DNA of 64,000 nt from an uncultured Candidatus Saccharibacteria bacterium. Lineage in GTDB: Bacteria > Patescibacteriota > Minisyncoccia > Phycocordibacterales > CSBR16-119. Made by a program: the position numbers and the translations under genes. The stretch is from the NCBI GenBank assembly GCA_964531475.1, contig CAZHCS010000001.1:14712-78711 (forward strand). Direction: 5' to 3'. This document shows positions 7,525 to 62,888 of the stretch, in pieces. The notes beneath the pieces were generated by a model. The model had not been told where the DNA came from, ran no database searches, and saw only the letters and a list, made by a program, of their open reading frames with translations. Every line of letters begins with the position of its first letter. Positions within the stretch are counted from its first letter, which is position 1.

Positions 7525-7905
7525 ATGTCGAGTCTCAAAAAACAGCGTTTAGTGAGTCGTTTGGCGCGTTCGCCAATGTCTTATGTCACCCTGTTTTTGT
7601 TATCCGCACTTTTTATTTGGAGTGCTACAGGGGCATATAGTAAAAGCCGTTTGGCGAAAGAGCGGCTCGAGAGTGCCAGAGGGCGCCTTTTGGCTATGGA
7701 AGAACAGCGGAGCAAGCTTGCCGCTGACTTGGAGTATGCCAACACGCCTTTTGGCGAGGAAAAAGCTCTGCGTGAGAAATTTAATGTCGTCAAAGAAGGT
7801 GAAAACGTAATAATGATAGTCGAAGAAGAACCTGTGGCTGAAACCAAGACTACAGAAAATATGGGCCGCTTCGAGGCCTGGCTCCGTAAAATCTTTGGAC
7901 GATGA
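7525..7905 (+). CDS. septum formation initiator-like protein (FtsL/DivIC/FtsB family)
   Basis: 126 aa. Short N-terminus, one transmembrane segment, then a coiled-coil (LAKERLESARGRLLAMEEQRSKL). Confidence 0.5.
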   Translation: MSSLKKQRLVSRLARSPMSYVTLFLLSALFIWSATGAYSKSRLAKERLESARGRLLAMEEQRSKLAADLEYANTPFGEEKALREKFNVVKEGENVIMIVEEEPVAETKTTENMGRFEAWLRKIFGR

Positions 7906-7959
7906 TTTTCTTTTACGTTCTGGTATAATGCGGTGACATTAGTAATTAAGATATTCACT

Positions 7960-8220
7960 ATGAAATCAGTCAGCATTTATACGACTCCAACCTGCCATTT
8001 TTGCCAGATGGCCAAAGAATTTTTCAAGGCAAATGGTGTCGAATATAGCGAGTACAATGTTGCCGGTGACGAGGCGAAGCGCGCCGAGATGATAGAAAAG
8101 TCAGGACAGATGGGTGTGCCGGTTATTTTTGTCGGTGAAGATATGGTTATTGGTTTTAACGAGCCAAAGCTCAAGACACTTCTAGCTGACCAGATGGGCG
8201 GCATGCAGGCCGCAGCCTAA
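7960..8220 (+). CDS. glutaredoxin-like protein (NrdH/Grx family)
   Basis: MKSVSIYTTPTCHFCQ contains a CxxC active site; thioredoxin fold. An extended -10 (TGgTATAAT) lies at 7921-7929. Confidence 0.7.
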   Translation: MKSVSIYTTPTCHFCQMAKEFFKANGVEYSEYNVAGDEAKRAEMIEKSGQMGVPVIFVGEDMVIGFNEPKLKTLLADQMGGMQAAA

Positions 8221-8258
8221 GTGGTCGGAGTGCGGACGATATGCTAGGATGTCCGCGC

Positions 8259-8330
8259 GCCCCCATAGTTCAATGGATAGAACAGTTCCGTCCTAAGGAG
8301 TAGATGTACGTTCGATTCGTACTGGGGGCA
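8259..8330 (+). tRNA. tRNA-Arg(CCT)
   Basis: GCCCCCA/TGGGGGC acceptor, D-arm GTTCAATGGATAGAAC, anticodon loop GTCCTAA (anticodon CCT), T-arm GTACGTTCGATTCGTAC. No CCA encoded. Confidence 0.8.
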
Positions 8331-8375
8331 CACAAGCACAAAATTCCGCGTAAGCGGAATTTTGTGCTTGTGTGC
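8328..8375 (+). other. perfect 22-bp stem hairpin (GTAA loop) overlapping the last 3 nt of tRNA-Arg
   Basis: GCACACAAGCACAAAATTCCGC-GTAA-GCGGAATTTTGTGCTTGTGTGC. No U-tract follows. Confidence 0.7.
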
Positions 8376-8405
8376 CGGCCGCATAAATATGCTAAAATAT
8401 TACCC

Positions 8406-8675
8406 ATGGACGAAAAGGAATTCCGCGATCTGAAGGAGACTGTGCTAGATACGCACAGGATGGTCTCTCGGCTCTATAAATTCGAGAAAAATCGCCGCCT
8501 GTGGCGCGCCTTGAAATTCATTCTCCTAACTGTTATTATCGTTGGGGCGTATTACGCCGCTCTGCCTTTTTTCAAGCGGGTCTTGGATACCTATAACAGT
8601 TTTTCGTCGGGGGTGACGAATATCCAAAACTTCCAATTCCCGTGGCAGAAAGATGCTTCAGCCGAAGCGCAATAA
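8406..8675 (+). CDS. hypothetical small membrane protein
   Basis: 89 aa from MDEKEFRDL, with one predicted transmembrane segment (ILLTVIIVGAYYAALPFF). Confidence 0.4.
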   Translation: MDEKEFRDLKETVLDTHRMVSRLYKFEKNRRLWRALKFILLTVIIVGAYYAALPFFKRVLDTYNSFSSGVTNIQNFQFPWQKDASAEAQ

Positions 8676-8676
8676 T

Positions 8677-8692
8677 ACCAACGCTCAGATAG
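8677..8692 (+). repeat. 16-bp direct repeat ACCAACGCTCAGATAG (copy 1)
   Basis: Identical to 9044-9059. The second copy spans the first 10 nt of tRNA-Phe. Confidence 0.75.
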
Positions 8693-8757
8693 GCCCGACG
8701 CAGGACCGGGTCCTGGTCGGGCTCCCGACATCCGATTGGCGCAATCGGATCGTCGGG
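8693..8757 (+). other. two consecutive strong hairpins sharing CCCGAC/GTCGGG arms
   Basis: GCCCGACGCAGGACCGGGTCCTGGTCGGGC, then CCCGAC-ATCCGATTG-gcg-CAATCGGAT-c-GTCGGG. Confidence 0.6.
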
Positions 8758-8789
8758 ACTCAGTACGATTCAATTAAGATATAAGTTGT

Positions 8790-9059
8790 ATGGCTTGGGT
8801 TTACATACTTAGTACTGAATCGGGTAAGTATTACATCGGTAGTACAGAAAATATCACCCAAAGATTGAAACACCATAAAGGTGGGTTCACACCAAGTACT
8901 AAGTCTATGGTGTTTAAAGATTGCCTCCTAACCCAAGAATACCAGACTCTTGGCGAAGCAAGATTGATTGAGAAGAGGCTAAAAAGTTTTAAGCGTCGAG
9001 ATTACATTGAAAAAATAATCAAAGACGGGTATATTAGAATACAACCAACGCTCAGATAG
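8790..9059 (+). CDS. GIY-YIG nuclease family protein (URI-domain, COG2827-like)
   Basis: 89 aa. YILSTESGKYYIGSTENITQRLKHHK is a GIY-YIG motif. The stop codon TAG lies inside the 5' end of tRNA-Phe. Confidence 0.75.
   Translation: MAWVYILSTESGKYYIGSTENITQRLKHHKGGFTPSTKSMVFKDCLLTQEYQTLGEARLIEKRLKSFKRRDYIEKIIKDGYIRIQPTLR
9044..9059 (+). repeat. 16-bp direct repeat ACCAACGCTCAGATAG (copy 2, overlaps tRNA-Phe 5' end)
   Basis: See copy 1 at 8677-8692. Confidence 0.75.
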
Positions 9060-9125
9060 CTCAGTTGGTAGAGCATTCCCCTGAAGAGGGAAGGGTCGCC
9101 AGTTCGAACCTGGCTCTGAGCACCA
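9050..9125 (+). tRNA. tRNA-Phe(GAA)
   Basis: GCTCAGA acceptor, D-arm TAGCTCAGTTGGTAGAGC, anticodon stem TTCCC/GGGAA with loop CTGAAGA (anticodon GAA), T-arm. CCA is encoded. Confidence 0.85.
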
Positions 9126-9130
9126 AAATC

Positions 9131-9160
9131 AAGAAAGGCCTCCATATGGAGGCCTTTCTT
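9131..9160. terminator. perfect palindromic bidirectional terminator
   Basis: AAGAAAGGCCTCC-ATAT-GGAGGCCTTTCTT, between tRNA-Phe (+) and hsp20 (-). Confidence 0.7.
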
Positions 9161-9165
9161 GATGT

Positions 9166-9675
9166 TTATCGTGATTTTACCCTTACCTTCGTCCTTCGTT
9201 TCTTGTCGATCTTTGGCAGACGGATAATGATTAGACCATTTTTTTCGGTTGCGATAGTGGTTTCTGGGTCGATCTCCTCTGGCAGCATAATTGTTCTAGT
9301 GAACGAGCCCCAGTATAGTTCACGGTGTATGTAGTCTCCTTGTTCGGCAATAGAGCCTTCTTTGCGTGATCCTGATATTACCACCATGTCGCGCGAAATG
9401 TCTATGTCCAAATCTTCTGGTTTTACTCCGGCGGCCATAGCCTTGACCACTACTTCGTCCGGTGTCTGGTACACGTCAACGGCTAGTTCGCTCGCGACAT
9501 CTTCGGATTCTTCCCATTCGCGCATACTAAAATCGGTATCTTCTTCGGAAATAGCCAATCGTTTACCGCCGCGTTCTGGCAATGTCGTGTCAGAATTTTC
9601 CGCGTCATCTTCATCCATGTCTCGAAGCGATAGTCCGCCGGTTAATTTTTGAAAAAATGATCTTTTTTTAAACAT
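9166..9675 (-). CDS. Hsp20/alpha-crystallin family small heat-shock protein
   Basis: An alpha-crystallin domain (VDVYQTPDEVVVKAMAAGVKPEDLDIDIS, GSFTRTIMLPEEID) with an acidic N-terminus. Confidence 0.85.
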   Translation of the reverse strand: MFKKRSFFQKLTGGLSLRDMDEDDAENSDTTLPERGGKRLAISEEDTDFSMREWEESEDVASELAVDVYQTPDEVVVKAMAAGVKPEDLDIDISRDMVVISGSRKEGSIAEQGDYIHRELYWGSFTRTIMLPEEIDPETTIATEKNGLIIIRLPKIDKKRRTKVRVKSR

Positions 9676-9687
9676 ACGAGTACGTGA

Positions 9688-10368
9688 TTATGCTCTTCGT
9701 AATTGTTCGAAGAGGAGCAATACGATAATCGTCACTCCCCACAGAAGGCTGAACACGCCGAACAGTCCTTTGTCGCTACCAATTATAAGAAAATTAAAGA
9801 TAGAGTGCAAGGAAATTGCGGCTATAAGTCCAATAACTAAGAATGTTTTCTTTAAAAACCAGCCGCGATAAAATGAAAGTCCGAGTGCTATACCGATCAT
9901 GCCGCTTGCGACCGCGTGCAAAAGCATTGCACCCAAGAATCTAAAGTTACCAGTGAGCAAACTAACAGTCGCGTCTCCGAGTGCGACCGGATCGACTAGA
10001 AAGAGTGCGTTTTCCATGGCGGCAAAACCGAGCGCGCCAGTTATGAGGTATATGGCAAAGTCGACCGGCTCATCAGCGCTAGAGCTTTTTAGCGCGACAA
10101 AGAGCACGGCCACGTATTTAATAACTTCTTCGATGGCGGCCCAGGCTATAGTAAGTGCGCGCTTGTCATGAATGAGTCCTTCGACGAAGTTTTCTAGTGG
10201 CAAGACGACAAAAACACTGCCCATGCCTATTAGAAATGTCAGAAGTAGAATACCGCGTGGCTCTGGGTGTTCGTCGTCTTCGCGCAGCCAGAACCAAAGC
10301 CATAAGAACGCAGGAACAAGTCCTCCAGCCAGAGAGATTAAGCCTACTTTGAGATTGAGATCGGCCAC
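9688..10368 (-). CDS. PrsW-family intramembrane protease-like membrane protein
   Basis: Polytopic membrane protein with EExxK-like (AAIEEVIKY), FxxxE (FAAMEN) and HxxxN/H (LLHAVASG) motifs. Overlaps the valS 3' end by about 25 nt. Confidence 0.55.
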   Translation of the reverse strand: MADLNLKVGLISLAGGLVPAFLWLWFWLREDDEHPEPRGILLLTFLIGMGSVFVVLPLENFVEGLIHDKRALTIAWAAIEEVIKYVAVLFVALKSSSADEPVDFAIYLITGALGFAAMENALFLVDPVALGDATVSLLTGNFRFLGAMLLHAVASGMIGIALGLSFYRGWFLKKTFLVIGLIAAISLHSIFNFLIIGSDKGLFGVFSLLWGVTIIVLLLFEQLRRA

Positions 10369-13568: not shown

Positions 13569-13622
13569 TACATGATGAAGAAGCGGCGGGCCGAAGGCCC
13601 GCCGCTTTTCTTTTCTATAATT

Positions 13623-14801
13623 TTACAAACTCCAATTTGGATCTGCGACGATAGTTGCAAGTTCGGGAAATGCTTTGCCACTTCGTATCAAAAAAAATCC
13701 GGCTATCGCTATCATGAGAGAATTGTCAGTCGATAGATCGTGGTCGGGGAAAACGACTTGGGTTCCAGGGAATTCCGCCCCGGCCATTTCCGTTAGGCGC
13801 TCTTTGATATATGTGTTCGCCGACACGCCGCCACCGACTATTAGAGTTGTTGCGCCGAATTCGGCTACCGCATCGCGTGTTTTTTTCACCAAAACATCGG
13901 TTACGGCCGTTTCGAATTCGCGCGCGACATCGCATTTTGTTTGTTCGTCCATTTCGCCGAGTTTTTTTACGAGATACAGAACCGAGGTTTTGATTCCGGA
14001 AAATGAAAAACTATAATCCCCCGAATTGATCATTGGCCTTGGCAAACTAATATCCGCGCGCGTGACGCCGCGTTTTGCAAGTTCAGAAACTTTTGGTCCG
14101 CCAGGGTAGGGTAACCCCAGAAGTCGCGCGACTTTGTCGAACGCCTCACCGACAGCGTCGTCTTTGGTCGCACCGATTTTTGTACATGCAAGGAAGTCGT
14201 TCATGACGACGAGCTCGGTATGGCCGCCAGAAATGAGAAGCGATATCGCAGGGAAGCGGAGGTTTGATATGTCTAGGGTTTGCGGCGTGTTTGGTGTCGC
14301 GGTGATGAGTGTCGAAAGCGCGTGCCCGTGCATATGGTTTGCCGGCATGACGGGTATGTCCCAGATTAGCGAGAGAGCTTTTGCGAAGTTGATACCGACC
14401 CACAATGCTGGTGCGAGTCCAGGACCAGCAGTGACGACGATAGCGTCAAGCGCTGGGCGTTCGATTGTGTTCGCGATTTCGAGCACCACGTCAGCCATTT
14501 TGCCTTCGCGCTCAAGGAGCCTTCTGATCTCATCCGGCCCAGTATTCAAGGTCGAACCTTGAATACTTGGATGATACATATCGGCCTGCTTCAAGCATTC
14601 GACGAAAATCGGCGGCAAGTTTTTAGCGTGTTCTCGCTTGGCCAAGTTAGGATAGACGCCGCCGAATTCGCGATGTATGTCGATCTGCGAGCGGACTACG
14701 TTCGCGAGTACGGTAAAAGTCGCCGTATTGTCCGTTTCGACGACGTCGAGGATAGAAATCGCGGTTTCGTCGCAGGATGTTTCGATAGAGAGAAGCTTCA
14801 T
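13623..14801 (-). CDS. tsaD: tRNA N6-adenosine threonylcarbamoyltransferase TsaD
   Basis: LSIETSCDETAIS, GGVSAN, LGLPYPGGP. It contains an in-frame P2 insert (PSIQGSTLNT). Confidence 0.9.
   Translation of the reverse strand: MKLLSIETSCDETAISILDVVETDNTATFTVLANVVRSQIDIHREFGGVYPNLAKREHAKNLPPIFVECLKQADMYHPSIQGSTLNTGPDEIRRLLEREGKMADVVLEIANTIERPALDAIVVTAGPGLAPALWVGINFAKALSLIWDIPVMPANHMHGHALSTLITATPNTPQTLDISNLRFPAISLLISGGHTELVVMNDFLACTKIGATKDDAVGEAFDKVARLLGLPYPGGPKVSELAKRGVTRADISLPRPMINSGDYSFSFSGIKTSVLYLVKKLGEMDEQTKCDVAREFETAVTDVLVKKTRDAVAEFGATTLIVGGGVSANTYIKERLTEMAGAEFPGTQVVFPDHDLSTDNSLMIAIAGFFLIRSGKAFPELATIVADPNWSL
14541..14571 (-). repeat. P2 palindromic insert AGTATTCAAGGTCGAACCTTGAATACTTGGA (copy 1), in-frame in tsaD
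   Basis: 31 nt identical to 25745-25775. The 11-bp stem AGTATTCAAGG/CCTTGAATACT with TCGAA loop is a perfect hairpin. It encodes PSIQGSTLNT. Confidence 0.85.
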
Positions 14802-24699: not shown

Positions 24700-24762
24700 G
24701 TATTGTAAAGTTTTGGTTCGGCTGTACGATACGTGAACCCTTTGTGATTGTCAAACGTTAAG

Positions 24763-24783
24763 ACTAGAGGTCCGACCTCTAGT
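24763..24783. repeat. P3 palindrome ACTAGAGGTCCGACCTCTAGT (21 nt, odd-centred perfect), 2 nt downstream of the priA-like stop codon
   Basis: Shares the 13-nt core GAGGTCCGACCTC with the in-frame palindrome in mnmA (36192-36216). Confidence 0.75.
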
Positions 24784-24784
24784 C

Positions 24785-26524
24785 CTAGAGCATCTCCGGG
24801 TTGATCCGGATCTGCCAATCGGGGCCGAGAGAGGCGAGGATGCTCGAGAGATGCGGGTTTTGGAATAATTCGTTCCATTCATTCTTTGCGAGCTTCATGA
24901 CGATGACGGTTTCAAATGCCTTGCCGCGTTTGATTCGGCGTGGGAGCGGGGACCAGTCGGCGAGCATGGTGAGGAGTGGTGCAGCGACGCTTTCGAAATC
25001 GTCTTTTGGAGGGATACGCGACAAGCGGACGATCGTGCCAAATGGCGGATAGCTAAACTTTTCTCGCATGAGTTTTTCTGATTCGTAAAATTTTGCGAGG
25101 TCACCACTTGTCGCGGCAATGATGGCTGGCGTGCTTGGTTCGCGGGTTTGGAGAAATACATTATCGGATAGTTTTCCGATGGCCAGCGCGAGACGGAGCA
25201 TCTTTTCATACACACGAAATGACGGAAGCGAGAGAAGTGCGTCCATGGAAATGACGGCAGCGACATCGAGGCGTTTCTCGAGGTACGGCAACGCGAGTTC
25301 CGTACCGACGAGAATCGCATTATTCGACGCGTAAAACTTTTCGATGACCTCGCGGACTTTTTTGTCAGTTTTGACTGTGTCGCCGTCGATTTGAAAAATT
25401 TCTTTTTTCGGAAATAGTTTTTCTGCTTCTTGTGCCACTGTGTCCGTGCCGATACCGAGCGAATCGAAATTCCAACTGTCGCATATAGGGCAGCGTGTGC
25501 GAGTGTCTAGTACAGTGTTAGTGAGTGGGTTGATTAGTATACGCTGGCCGCCACGTTCACGAAGTGCGAGCGGTGTATCGCCGTCTTTTAATATGTGTCC
25601 GCAATCGTGACAGACGACAGAGCTCGCCAAGCCTTTTTTGAGCGAAAAGAGAAATGCGTGCTTTGATTCGCGAACAGCTTCGAACACTGCGCTTGAAAAG
25701 ATAAAACTTTTCTTATATCGCGCTTCCTTATCACTCATGTCGCAAGTATTCAAGGTCGAACCTTGAATACTTGGAATCGGGAGATATTGTTCGACGATCG
25801 TTTCGAGTGTCGTTGGATTTTCAAATATAAGTTTTGTGTTTAGGGATTTTGCAAGTAGTCGAGCAAAGACGCGCAGGTCGAAATAGGGACGCTTGATTGT
25901 GCGGTAGGCGGCGTTGCCTTCGTCGTGAATGATGATGGTGCCAAGATCGTGTCGTGGTGTGAAAAGAAAAGTTGGCGTCATAACGACGGTAATAGGATTT
26001 GTGCACTCTAATATTTCCTTGTAACGGGCGAAAAGAGTTTTCTTGCGCAAGCTTCCATGAATAATGAATGTTCTATCGAGGTCGAACTTCGATAGATTTT
26101 CATAAAGTTTTTCGGCGGCGCGGACGGTCGGCGCGATATGAAAGATAGTTGTGCCGACCGTCCGCGCCGCCGGTTTCGGCAACTCTTGGTGCTTGGTCAA
26201 GAACTCCGACGGAATAAAATAATTGATGATCTGGCCCAAGTTTCCAGCCGAAAAATCACGCGCGGCGCGGCACCCTTCGAAAAATTCTCTATAGAAGGGT
26301 GCCGCGCCGCGCTTCTCGCGCACTTTCCGTAATGCAAAATCAGAACCTTTGACATCTATCTTTCTTTTCGCCAAGTCGTCAACCGCGACTACTAGTGCAT
26401 CATAGGTTTTTTTTCGTATGTCTATAGACACGATATCGCCGACACTAATATCTTTGGACGAAAAATAGGTGAGCGAGTCTTTCGCGACTTTGTCGGTGAT
26501 TGGTGAGACTTCGATAAGCTTCAT
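24785..26524 (-). CDS. primosomal protein N' (PriA)-like, with degenerate helicase motifs
   Basis: The N-terminal 3'-DNA-binding-like region and the Cys-rich zinc-binding region (CHDCGH...CPICDSW) align to PriA. HIAPTVRAA stands where Walker A GxGKT should be, and IIIHDEG replaces DEEH. It carries an in-frame P2 insert. Confidence 0.55.
   Translation of the reverse strand: MKLIEVSPITDKVAKDSLTYFSSKDISVGDIVSIDIRKKTYDALVVAVDDLAKRKIDVKGSDFALRKVREKRGAAPFYREFFEGCRAARDFSAGNLGQIINYFIPSEFLTKHQELPKPAARTVGTTIFHIAPTVRAAEKLYENLSKFDLDRTFIIHGSLRKKTLFARYKEILECTNPITVVMTPTFLFTPRHDLGTIIIHDEGNAAYRTIKRPYFDLRVFARLLAKSLNTKLIFENPTTLETIVEQYLPIPSIQGSTLNTCDMSDKEARYKKSFIFSSAVFEAVRESKHAFLFSLKKGLASSVVCHDCGHILKDGDTPLALRERGGQRILINPLTNTVLDTRTRCPICDSWNFDSLGIGTDTVAQEAEKLFPKKEIFQIDGDTVKTDKKVREVIEKFYASNNAILVGTELALPYLEKRLDVAAVISMDALLSLPSFRVYEKMLRLALAIGKLSDNVFLQTREPSTPAIIAATSGDLAKFYESEKLMREKFSYPPFGTIVRLSRIPPKDDFESVAAPLLTMLADWSPLPRRIKRGKAFETVIVMKLAKNEWNELFQNPHLSSILASLGPDWQIRINPEML
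25745..25775 (-). repeat. P2 palindromic insert (copy 2), in-frame in the priA-like gene
   Basis: Identical 31 nt to 14541-14571. Encodes PSIQGSTLNT within ...EQYLPIPSIQGSTLNTCDMS... Confidence 0.85.
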
Positions 26525-35377: not shown

Positions 35378-36448
35378 ATGGGTGAAGTGCGCAAGAAAAA
35401 GGTATTCGTCGGCGTTTCGGGCGGAGTGGATAGCTCTGTGTCTTTGGCGCTCCTGCGAGACCAAGGCTATGACGTTGTTGGTTGCTTCATAAAGACCTGG
35501 CAGCCGGATTTTGTCACTTGCACATGGAAAGAAGAGCGCCGAGATGCTATGCGCGTATGCGCCAAACTAGGTGTCCCGTTTGTCATGATTGATGCAGAAG
35601 CCGCTTATCGTGACCACGTCGGTAAATATTTCATCGACGAATACAAGGCTGGCCGGACACCTAATCCCGACGTAATGTGCAATCGCGAAATAAAGTTCGG
35701 TATTTTTTTGGATTACGCGCTCGCGCACGGAGCCGACTACGTAGCCACGGGTCACTATGCGCAAACGGAAGCAGTAAACAACAAGCATTACTTACTAAGG
35801 GCGGGGAAAGACGAGGCAAAGGACCAGAGTTATTTTTTGTGGACGCTCACACAAGAACAACTATCAAAAATAATATTTCCCATTGGACATCTGCAAAAAT
35901 CAGAAGTCCGTAAGATTGCTGCAAAATATGATTTATTGACGGCAACTAAAAAAGATTCACAAGGCGTTTGTTTTTTAGGACCAATCGATATGAAAGAATT
36001 TCTCGCACACTATATCGACAAAAAACGCGGAGACGTTCTCGATGTAGATGGAAATGTCATTGGTTATCATGACGGCGCGCTATTTTTCACGCTCGGTGAA
36101 CGCCACGGTTTTATTATTACAAAAAAAGGTAGCGACGATACTCGGCTATACGTCGTTGACCGCAATCTTGCTGACAATACTATTACGGTCGCTGGTCGAG
36201 GTCCGACCTCGACCAGAGGCTTGCGGACCGAGATACGGATTGAAAATTGGAATTGGATCCAAAAACCAGAAAATGGCAAGATTTATGGGGCCCGTATTCG
36301 CTACCAACAACCCCTTCAGGCGTGCCGTGTAGAGGGCGAGATGGTCATATTTGATCAACCGCAGGAAGCCGCGGCGCCTGGGCAGTCGTGTGTCGTTTAT
36401 GATGCAGGAGTTTTGATAGGGGGAGGTATTGTAGGCCGTAGCTCTTGA
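35378..36448 (+). CDS. mnmA: tRNA-specific 2-thiouridylase MnmA
   Basis: PP-loop VFVGVSGGVDSSV, catalytic-Cys region, C-terminal barrel. Contains the in-frame P3 palindrome insert (AGRGPTSTRG). Confidence 0.9.
   Translation: MGEVRKKKVFVGVSGGVDSSVSLALLRDQGYDVVGCFIKTWQPDFVTCTWKEERRDAMRVCAKLGVPFVMIDAEAAYRDHVGKYFIDEYKAGRTPNPDVMCNREIKFGIFLDYALAHGADYVATGHYAQTEAVNNKHYLLRAGKDEAKDQSYFLWTLTQEQLSKIIFPIGHLQKSEVRKIAAKYDLLTATKKDSQGVCFLGPIDMKEFLAHYIDKKRGDVLDVDGNVIGYHDGALFFTLGERHGFIITKKGSDDTRLYVVDRNLADNTITVAGRGPTSTRGLRTEIRIENWNWIQKPENGKIYGARIRYQQPLQACRVEGEMVIFDQPQEAAAPGQSCVVYDAGVLIGGGIVGRSS
36192..36216 (+). repeat. P3 palindrome CTGGTCGAGGTCCGACCTCGACCAG (25 nt, perfect), in-frame in mnmA
   Basis: Shares the core GAGGTCCGACCTC with 24763-24783. 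Confidence 0.8.
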
Positions 36449-36591
36449 CAAAATTTTCAAAAGCCGTAGGATACCTCGTAGGTGCAGTGTGCGTTGGCAT
36501 GCTGAAGGTGCGGGCGGGCGTGTTTTTGCCGAATGTGAAGTTGAAAATAGTGAAGTTGTCGGATTTTTACGCTGACAGACCCAAACCTTAC

Positions 36592-36623
36592 AACCCTCGC
36601 CCATCAGCGGGGGTTGTTTCTTT
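36592..36623 (+). terminator. intrinsic terminator (mnmA) overlapping the alaS -35
   Basis: AACCCTCGC-ccatca-GCGGGGGTT followed by GTTTCTTT. Confidence 0.55.
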
Positions 36624-36641
36624 GGGGCTATGCCGTATACT
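36614..36641 (+). promoter_or_regulatory. promoter-like TTGTTT-16-TATACT, 7 nt before the alaS ATG (leaderless)
   Basis: -10 at 36636-36641; ATG at 36649. Confidence 0.45.
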
Positions 36642-36648
36642 AAATGCC

Positions 36649-38328
36649 ATGGAAAGCGCAGTTATCCGCAAGAAATTCTTGCAATTTTTTGAATCAAAAG
36701 GGCATACAACTATCCCCTCGGCCTCGCTAGTACCAGTCGGGGACTCGTCGGTACTCTTTACGACTGCTGGTATGCAGCCACTAGTACCGTATCTTTTAGG
36801 TGCGTCGCATCCTGCTGGTACGCGCCTAACTAGCGCGCAAAAGTGCGTCCGCACGGGCGATATCGACGACATCGGCGATAATCGTCACCTTACTTTTTTT
36901 GAAATGCTTGGTAACTGGTCGCTCGGCGATTATTTCAAAGACGAATCGATTGCTTGGAGCTACCAATTTTTGACTAACAAAGACGTCGGGCTCGGTCTTG
37001 ATCCGTCGCGGCTCTACGTCACTTGTTTCGAGGGCGACGAGAGTGCGCCGCGTGACGAGGAATCTAAATCTATCTGGATGAAGGCCGGCATTCCCGAGTC
37101 GCGGATCTATTTCTTGGGCAAAGACGATAACTGGTGGGGACCAGGCGACAATGGTCCGTGCGGACCAGATACAGAAATCTTTTATGATGTTACTGGCAAG
37201 CTTGGCGAGCTTTCGCATGAACAGTTTCTCTTGGCACAAAAGAGCGAACAAGTTATCGAGATCTGGAATAACGTTTTCATGGAGTATGAATCGCGCGACG
37301 GCAAAGTTGTTGGTAAACTCGCGCAGAAAAATGTCGATACGGGCATGGGTCTTGAGCGCATTACCGCTGTTGTCAACGGCAAGACGAGCGTCTACGATAC
37401 CGACCTCTTTAGTAGTGAATCAACAAAAGAAGATAGAGTCGTAGCTGACCATGTAAAAGCCGCCCTCTTTCTAATATCTGATGGTGTTTTACCAGGAAAT
37501 ACTGGTCAAGGATATATTGTTCGTCGCTTGATTCGTCGTGCGGTTAGGTTTTCCAAAGAACCGCTTGTAGACAAGATTAATGCAGTCAAGAAATTGTATG
37601 CGGGAATTTATGAACTCGACGATCATGGAGAGATAGAAAAAGAAGAGGCAAAGTTTCGCACGACGCTCGAGAAGGGTATGAAAGAGTTTGAAAAAGGCGA
37701 GCGCGATGCATTTGTATTGTTCACGTCTTACGGTTTTCCATTCGAGATGACCGAAGAACTTGCTCGTGAGCGCGGAGAAACTCTATCGAAATCCGATTTC
37801 GATATGAAAATGGCCGAGCATCAAAAGCTCTCACAGTCTGCTTCCGCCGGCATGTTCAAGGGCGGACTTGCGAATCATAATGAAGCGACGATCAAGCTCC
37901 ATACAGCGCATCACTTACTTCTCGCCGCACTTCAGCAAGTGCTCGGTCCCGAGGTAAAACAGCGGGGAAGCAATATTACCGAAGAGCGCCTGCGCATCGA
38001 TTTCTCATTCGACCGCAAGATGACCGACGAAGAGAAGAAGCGTGTCGAAGATATCGTGAACGACGCCATTTCGCGTGACTTGAAAGTTATTCGCCGAGAA
38101 ATGACGCGTGATGAAGCCGAAAAGATCGGCGCGCAGATGGAGTTTGGTGCAAAATACGGTGATACGGTTTCGGTTTACTTTATCGAAAACGAAAACGGGG
38201 AAGCTTTTAGCAAGGAGTTCTGTGGTGGGCCTCATGTCGAACATACTGGCAAACTCGGTCATTTCAAGATTCAAAAAGAAGAAGCCTCGAGCCAGGGCGT
38301 CCGACGAATCAAAGCAGTTTTGGGATAA
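36649..38328 (+). CDS. alaS: alanine--tRNA ligase (short form: catalytic plus editing domain, no C-terminal oligomerisation domain)
   Basis: KKFLQFFESKGHTTIPSASLVP, FTTAGMQPL, and the editing motif HTAHHLLLAAL. 559 aa from MESAV; the ORF-track start at 36445 is an upstream extension. Confidence 0.85.
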   Translation: MESAVIRKKFLQFFESKGHTTIPSASLVPVGDSSVLFTTAGMQPLVPYLLGASHPAGTRLTSAQKCVRTGDIDDIGDNRHLTFFEMLGNWSLGDYFKDESIAWSYQFLTNKDVGLGLDPSRLYVTCFEGDESAPRDEESKSIWMKAGIPESRIYFLGKDDNWWGPGDNGPCGPDTEIFYDVTGKLGELSHEQFLLAQKSEQVIEIWNNVFMEYESRDGKVVGKLAQKNVDTGMGLERITAVVNGKTSVYDTDLFSSESTKEDRVVADHVKAALFLISDGVLPGNTGQGYIVRRLIRRAVRFSKEPLVDKINAVKKLYAGIYELDDHGEIEKEEAKFRTTLEKGMKEFEKGERDAFVLFTSYGFPFEMTEELARERGETLSKSDFDMKMAEHQKLSQSASAGMFKGGLANHNEATIKLHTAHHLLLAALQQVLGPEVKQRGSNITEERLRIDFSFDRKMTDEEKKRVEDIVNDAISRDLKVIRREMTRDEAEKIGAQMEFGAKYGDTVSVYFIENENGEAFSKEFCGGPHVEHTGKLGHFKIQKEEASSQGVRRIKAVLG

Positions 38329-60903: not shown

Positions 60904-60988
60904 GAGGGGATTGTAGCACGGAGCGGCGGGCCCGGGGCCCGCCGCTTCAATTGGGGAAAGAGTGGAAAATGGGGAAAAACATTTGGTA

Positions 60989-62843: not shown

Positions 62844-62888
62844 GAAGCCGGGCTGGGGTGATGCAAAGCATCACCCCAGCCCGGCTTC
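62844..62888 (+). terminator. long perfect hairpin terminator (21-bp stem, AAA loop)
   Basis: GAAGCCGGGCTGGGGTGATGC-aaa-GCATCACCCCAGCCCGGCTTC followed by TTGCTTTTCC. Confidence 0.7.

Follow-up and report, generated by a model that had tools for sequence, protein, structure and literature searches.

Identical hairpins in tsaD and a priA-like gene as probable members of a REP-like family associated with a RAYT-type transposase in the Candidate Phyla Radiation

A 31-mer that is present in identical form in tsaD and in a priA-like gene of a 64-kb window (the window being the whole stretch of DNA analysed) is, in our judgement, very probably a REP-like element. The two copies would belong to a hairpin family that extends across the Candidate Phyla Radiation (CPR, or Patescibacteria) and whose members accompany the gene of a RAYT-type Y1 transposase of ~220 aa, which most likely mobilises them. 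Translated repeat DNA would then account for a class of short 'insertions' and hypervariable loops seen in the core proteins of CPR, a point that bears on annotation, alignments and phylogenetic markers.

Results

An identical hairpin in tsaD and a priA-like gene

The 31-mer AGTATTCAAGGTCGAACCTTGAATACTTGGA occurs exactly twice in the window, at 14541-14571 and 25745-25775 on the + strand, where no occurrence was expected; the 64 kb contain no other exact long direct repeat. No match to it was obtained in 100 dinucleotide shuffles, with up to three mismatches allowed. Both copies are in-frame in minus-strand ORFs, in the same phase, and each encodes PSIQGSTLNT, which verified the coordinates, the peptide and the common phase given in a preliminary description of this DNA (Table 1). 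The perfect hairpin of that description also held, but not its 11-bp stem with a TCGAA loop: folding gave a 12-bp stem with a 3-nt loop, that is, a 27-nt palindrome, and in the priA-like gene the pairing continues over 14 bp. The fold energy of the tsaD copy was -19 to -21.5 kcal/mol, with z = -3.7 to -6.6.

Table 1. Hairpins and host genes of the window, other inverted repeats, and the hairpin sites in orthologs. Sequences are written as arm.loop.arm.
Feature	Position	Strand	Sequence	Context and remarks
tsaD, host of type-A copy 1	13623-14801	-		Pfam PF00814, E = 2e-76, 258 bits; PDB TsaD, E = 1e-66
priA-like gene, host of type-A copy 2	24785-26524	-		PDB PriA 4nl4, E = 2e-16
Type-A hairpin, copy 1	14541-14567 (palindrome), plus 4 shared bases		AGTATTCAAGGT.CGA.ACCTTGAATACT	In-frame in TsaD; PSIQGSTLNT, TsaD residues 78-87; exact copy of the 31-mer
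Type-A hairpin, copy 2	25743..25775 (14-bp-stem palindrome 25743-25773; 31-mer 25745-25775)			In-frame in the PriA-like protein; PSIQGSTLNT
Type-B hairpin	24762..24784		GACTAGAGGT.CCG.ACCTCTAGTC	Extragenic, directly adjoins the priA-like stop codon
Type-B hairpin	36192..36216		CTGGTCGAGGT.CCG.ACCTCGACCAG	In-frame in MnmA (35378-36448, +); AGRGPTSTRG
Second palindrome in the priA-like gene, imperfect	26073..26095	-	CTATCGAAG.TTCGA.CCTCGATAG	In-frame, LSKFDLD; possible 'type C'
Perfect 'type C' hairpin	37784..37804		TATCGAAAT.CCG.ATTTCGATA	In-frame in AlaS (36445-38328, +); LSKSDFD
Long perfect GC-rich inverted repeat	8327-8376			Stem 23 bp; outside the hairpin family
Long perfect GC-rich inverted repeat	62844-62888			Stem 21 bp; outside the hairpin family
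Related terminator-like hairpin pair	13581-13607 and 60922-60948		AAGCGGCGGGCC...GGCCCGCCGCTT	One just 3' of tsaD; outside the hairpin family
PriA site, window			ATTCAAGGT.TCG.ACCTTGAAT	
PriA site, ortholog P0123			GTTCGAGGT.CGG.ACCTCGAAC	
PriA site, ortholog P0125			GTGCGAGGT.TCA.ACCTCGCAC	
PriA site, ortholog P0128				Decayed remnant
PriA site, ortholog P0121				Closest relative; no hairpin
TsaD site, ortholog P0003			ACGACTAGAGGT.CCG.ACCTCTAGTCGT	In-frame; same variant as the type-B copy at 24762 of the window
TsaD site, ortholog P0025			AATTGTGCAAGGT.CCG.ACCTTGCACAATT	
TsaD site, ortholog P0009				Split, doublet-like form
TsaD site, orthologs P0002 and P0005				No hairpin

The tsaD copy falls within a segment of ~41 residues (76-116) that the solved TsaD structures of E. 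coli and Salmonella do not have. In the AF2 model of TsaD (pLDDT 92), residues 78-87 are coil, flanked by helices 51-72 and 89-95, and the block that holds them is among the least confident. The insertion that had been described is therefore real with respect to the solved structures, but with respect to the nearest CPR orthologs the net insertion is nil. Homologs of the priA-like protein carry the name primosomal protein N'. The protein itself had no Pfam match at all, and its close CPR homologs had none or PF17764 only; distant PriA proteins have DEAD and Helicase_C. In this clade, the helicase core may have diverged strongly or degenerated.

Further hairpins in the window

The sequence AGGTNNNACCT occurs four times in the 64 kb versus 0.34 expected, and all four occurrences are hairpins with a stem of at least 10 bp. 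Two are of type A and two of type B; all are singlets, not doublets, and three of the four are in-frame inside genes. The type-B hairpin of MnmA is placed in the linker from the PRC-barrel to the C-terminal domain.

On the + strand, the loop begins with C (CGA or CCG) in all four type-A and type-B hairpins (14541, 24762, 25743, 36192), although the genes that host them are not all on one strand. GC skew is positive throughout the window. The C-first loops and the GC skew are compatible with a replication-strand bias, but n = 4, and it is uncertain whether the orientations of types A and B correspond.

The imperfect palindrome in the priA-like gene is possibly a member of a further family, 'type C' (TATCGAAAT.CSG.ATTTCGATA), which includes the hairpin in AlaS and was also seen at L065:10428 and L066:1795. 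At this second PriA site, orthologs have perfect hairpins with compensatory stem changes. An Rfam scan of 13500-38500 returned two tRNAs alone above threshold, and no family matched the hairpins.

A hairpin family across Patescibacteria

We scanned for the family with the 19-nt core TTCAAGGTCGAACCTTGAA, using one genome per species. The core was found at 63 loci in the species-representative genomes, compared with ~2 expected by chance, and nearly all hosts were Patescibacteria (Parcubacteria, Doudnabacteria, Adlerbacteria, Saccharibacteria, Paceibacterota, Minisyncoccia). No match was found in viral contigs. Exact-core copies numbered up to ~9 per CPR genome, and the copy number of hairpins per genome appears modest, in the tens and not the hundreds.

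The unit common to the family is the 21-mer CTTCAAGGTCGAACCTTGAAG, and conservation ends symmetrically at both of its edges. The core was 100% conserved despite diverged flanks in the locus pairs L011/L025, L030/L049 and L014/L051. Past the 21-nt core, the outer stems are locus-specific yet perfectly paired, with an extension of at least 4 bp in 11 copies against <1 expected. A search for a GTAG or CGTC end tag gave 1-5 of 70 flanks, which is the chance level. TCCA, which stands 5' of the TsaD and PriA sites also in orthologs that have no hairpin, was not enriched beside other family copies. Adjacent copies formed 20 pairs, 7-22 nt apart, and were inverted in all 19 informative pairs; many of these inverted doublets fold as one long perfect hairpin, which is the REPIN architecture.

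Roughly half of the sampled family copies are in-frame inside genes. Within long ORFs, the core is found in either orientation and in the two phases free of stop codons, the third phase containing TGA, and it encodes four peptides: LQGSTLK, LQGRTLK, SRFDLE and SRSNLE. When ten of the longest host ORFs were scanned, eight proved to be recognisable genes with domains on either side of the element, namely UvrA (two), topoisomerase I (TopA), RecG, DnaG (two), a PIF1-like helicase and a TPR protein, and each time the element was positioned in an inter-domain linker. These results indicate that the family is a DNA-level element and not a protein motif.

The loop codons of the intragenic copies (L001-L063) were counted by phase, with some orthologous duplicates included in the counts. 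In the QG phase, Ser (TCG) and Arg stood at ~10:3, and in the SR phase SRSNLE (CGA) and SRFDLE stood at ~11:3. This coupling of phase and orientation suggests amino-acid-level filtering of the surviving intragenic copies. A family-like hairpin, TACATAGGT.CGG.ACCTATGTA, was also seen at L070:8426, in-frame in a class-I tRNA synthetase gene (7676-9835); L070 is the genome of a TsaD ortholog.

Some copies lie at extreme contig ends, as in L007 (position 37), L012 (position 1), L043 and L049. L007 and L012 are two contigs of one 'Gammaproteobacteria' MAG and have an identical flank. Assemblies may break at hairpin repeats, and misbinned contigs or chance may account for the few matches outside CPR (L003, L007/L012, L023, L057).

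A transposase gene linked to the hairpins

In four CPR genomes (L063, L015, L026, L020), an ORF of ~220 aa has the hairpin at both flanks and a third copy inside; the flanking hairpins of the L026 ORF are doublets. The ORF scored 40 bits against Pfam Y1_Tnp (cutoff 23), and its best NCBIfam model was REP-associated tyrosine transposase, with a score of 45, below the equivalog cutoff of 80. At least ~8,000 relatives were found among the matches listed, and those with names are Patescibacteria transposases. An HUH motif, PNHFHLL, and a tyrosine motif, YIHLNP, are invariant. In a profile search of PDB, 4ER8, the E. coli REP-associated transposase (TnpA-REP) bound to a REP hairpin, came first as a marginal match (E = 0.14). 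When the AF2 model of the transposase (pLDDT 82) was searched with Foldseek, 4ER8 was the sole significant PDB match (E = 9e-4, probability 1.0), and the structural matches after it were TnpA of IS608 and of ISDra2.

Many of these ORFs end in FKVEP*, that is, they read into the 3' hairpin and take its TGA as their stop codon. QGxTL is nearly invariant in the alignment of close transposase homologs. In Parcubacteria Gr01-1014_56 (L020:2331-2901), the gene is split between frames and looks disrupted, and the genome has ~8 exact-core hairpins, which may be an orphaned repeat population. No transposase homolog was found in the 64-kb window, so that a cognate enzyme in this organism is putative.

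Because the first four loci had come to light via the palindrome, we fetched 80 transposase loci by protein alone and scored perfect hairpins with a stem of at least 7 bp and a 3-nt loop. Hairpin density was 3.7 per kb within 200 nt of the transposase gene versus 0.25 per kb farther off. A hairpin was present upstream of the gene at 44 of 76 loci and downstream at 41 of 74. Where both sides had one (32 of 70 loci), the arm was identical between the sides in 31 of the 32, and it was specific to the locus, as in CATAGGC.GAG.GCCTATG and GTAAAGGA.CGG.TCCTTTAC. Under this strict criterion, ~40% of the loci had no perfect flanking hairpin. The internal hairpin lies ~155 nt into the ORF and its sequence co-varies with the flanking hairpins. 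Since the internal copy changes with the flanks, the QGxTL of close homologs is the DNA hairpin; x stands for the codon of the loop, and a change between R (CGA) and S (TCG) at x is a loop flip. The link to a REP-type HUH tyrosine transposase gene, together with the recurrence of the core, in either orientation and in two phases, across dozens of CPR genomes, bears out the view that the segment is mobile or copied palindromic DNA and not a product of convergent protein evolution.

Occupancy of the tsaD and priA sites in orthologs

In the nearest TsaD and PriA orthologs (60-70% identity), the loop at each site has the same length as in the window, and this length is equal with or without a hairpin. 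Both sites hold other hairpin variants, with compensatory changes, in 60-68%-identical orthologs (Table 1). The variants and the constant loop length together imply that both sites were occupied before the lineages diverged. Since then the hairpins have decayed in some lineages, and in others one variant has taken the place of another. Given such old occupancy, the perfect match (31/31) between the two window copies must have arisen recently, by re-copying into a site already filled or by gene conversion. No clean pair of empty and filled sites was found among the TsaD and PriA orthologs, and for this reason we infer transposition rather than observe it.

The word 'inserted' in the preliminary description was accordingly too simple: a copied element is upheld, but not a fresh insertion, as orthologs hold variants and loop length is unchanged. 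The orthologs that retain the segment were not found to encode it in non-palindromic DNA, the outcome named there as refuting; their DNA is palindromic, with compensatory changes. The series of orthologous sites (TsaD and two PriA sites) is a compact natural data set on hairpin persistence and homogenisation.

Discussion

Proposed explanation and its alternatives

By analogy with E. coli TnpA-REP and with TnpA of IS608 and ISDra2, the transposase would recognise the hairpin extruded on single-stranded DNA, and would cut and rejoin it so that hairpins or inverted doublets are copied to new places. Binding and cleavage of the REP hairpin by the CPR enzyme are predicted from the precedents of 4ER8 and IS608. 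In compact genomes, a copy inside a gene would survive if it keeps the frame, avoids the TGA phase and sits in a tolerant loop or inter-domain linker, and the surviving copies would be translated as 7-10 extra or replaced residues. The phase rule, with two open phases and one that contains TGA, is a simple example of coding constraint filtering mobile DNA. The TsaD and PriA sites have had family hairpins since before the lineage split, and the perfect identity of the two window copies would reflect recent re-copying or gene conversion by the variant now dominant in the genome.

A wider reading is possible, and we put it forward only tentatively. In it, the CPR REP-RAYT system would be lineage-wide and vertically persistent, with hairpins mainly in essential replication, repair and tRNA-modification genes, at codon positions fixed over deep divergence and overwritten by each genome's current variant (concerted evolution), while the transposase ORF has its own target and takes its stop codon from a flanking copy. 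If this is true, the internal target and the borrowed stop codon would suggest autoregulation or a domesticated host function, not plain selfish spread.

Selection by the host for mRNA or DNA structures (translational pause, RNase or protein-binding sites) that regulate replication, repair and tRNA-modification genes, with the transposase link secondary, is an unlikely origin of the hairpins. It would fit the frequency of DNA-metabolism genes among the hosts, the fully conserved core between diverged flanks, and the retention of hairpins at one codon position, with compensation in the stem, in orthologs of 50-68% identity. Complementarity of the arms can, however, persist without selection via intra-hairpin template switching, and both orientations to transcription are common, so that no single RNA structure or loop is kept. 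Moreover, the closest relatives lost the hairpin at both sites with loop length unchanged, identical sequences are also found between genes and both around and within the transposase gene, and Rfam gave no match. Template switching could also be invoked in its own right: at stalled forks (quasi-palindrome correction) it would make or perfect palindromes, short-homology gene conversion would spread them, and the Y1 gene would merely attract them, with no dedicated transposase. The perfect pairing of the locus-specific outer stems (the 11 extended copies), variant replacement at sites without change of length and the loop codon flips between TCG and CGA are what this process would produce. As the whole explanation we consider it very unlikely, because it does not account for one 21-nt core in distant CPR classes, for the matching hairpins of each transposase lineage (31 of 32) or for doublets that are always inverted. 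Template switching is best seen as a complement, explaining stem perfection and homogenisation, and not as a replacement of the transposase reading.

That PSIQGSTLNT, or QG(S/R)TL, represents a motif at the level of the protein, whether by convergence or as part of a domain, or that the repeats are an assembly or adapter artefact, is extremely improbable. The identical peptide in two proteins and the near invariance of QGxTL among the transposases had spoken for a motif; yet the alternative phase gives the unrelated peptides SRSNLE and SRFDLE in other genes, in more distant transposases the internal peptide changes with the flanking hairpin DNA, and orthologs keep palindromic DNA, by which the motif reading is effectively refuted. 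Copies at contig ends (L007, L012) might hint at an artefact, but the repeats are CPR-restricted and in-frame in independent assemblies from many projects, and a sequencing-adapter or assembly origin was rejected on the same grounds. We therefore retain the REP-like element with its RAYT-type transposase as the likely explanation.

Several other identities were considered and rejected. A parS-like or operator site (intragenic, few copies, cross-phylum) does not agree with stems that vary with pairing kept, with inverted doublets or with the transposase linkage. The copies are too few for a DNA uptake sequence, and the palindromic and variable nature of the element also speaks against one. Intrinsic terminators would require a T-run, which is absent, and many copies are inside ORFs; the GC-rich terminator-like hairpins (13581) are a separate class. 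A mimic of the tRNA T-arm or T-loop was dismissed on the occurrence of both orientations and the lack of an Rfam match, CRISPR or solo repeats on the irregular spacing, and a phage origin on the zero matches in viral contigs.

Comparison with known systems

Good descriptions of REP/REPIN-RAYT systems exist (Bertels & Rainey 2011, PMC3116915; Bertels et al. 2017, PMC5581495; PMC3479197). The CPR family resembles those of E. coli and Pseudomonas in its short dispersed palindromic hairpins, with adjacent copies as inverted doublets, in the hairpins that flank a Y1 HUH transposase gene, with a cognate hairpin per transposase lineage, and in the persistence of copies at orthologous positions. It differs from them in that its hairpins are tiny (21-nt core, 3-nt loop), fully symmetric and without a GTAG tag. 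The hosts are CPR/Patescibacteria as opposed to Proteobacteria, and copy number appears lower in CPR. About half of the CPR copies are intragenic, which departs from the extragenic criterion for REPs, although exceptions have been published (PMC3733652). The transposase ORF contains a copy and often takes its stop codon from the 3' flanking one.

Such exceptions were described by Di Nocera et al. 2013 (PMC3733652), who reported GTAG/CGTC-tagged REPs or REP dimers in-frame in known proteins, many of them products of replication and repair genes (uvrA, uvrB, dnaE, helicases), tRNA synthetases and tRNA-modification enzymes. The CPR hairpins have the same host-gene spectrum, but they are without the GTAG/CGTC end tag and their host phyla differ. 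The Rickettsia palindromic elements (RPEs) are cited in the same paper (refs 13, 14 in PMC3733652). The CPR family is like RPEs in that a palindromic repeat is tolerated in-frame in essential genes and adds a peptide segment, and it is unlike them in its length of 21-31 nt and in having no sequence relationship to them; the likeness is confined to in-frame tolerance. RPEs are ~100-150 bp long and are not known to have an associated transposase. The earlier term 'RPE-like' can thus be kept for the in-frame tolerance, but not for the length (21-31 nt versus 100-150 bp) or for the mechanism, which is probably of the REP/REPIN-RAYT type.

With the IS200/IS605 elements (TnpA of IS608 and ISDra2), the CPR system shares the Y1 HUH fold and, presumably, subterminal hairpin recognition. 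In IS200/IS605, the repeat is the whole element including tnpA, whereas in CPR the dispersed units are bare 21-31-nt hairpins that do not include the gene.

We found no paper that links RAYT or REP with CPR/Patescibacteria, and the present results extend REP/RAYT biology to the Candidate Phyla Radiation. The kind of system is not new, in-frame REPs in repair and replication genes being already known (PMC3733652). What sets the CPR family apart is that its core is tiny, untagged and symmetric, that the transposase ORF contains a copy, that a large share of the copies is intragenic and that variants replace one another at fixed sites.
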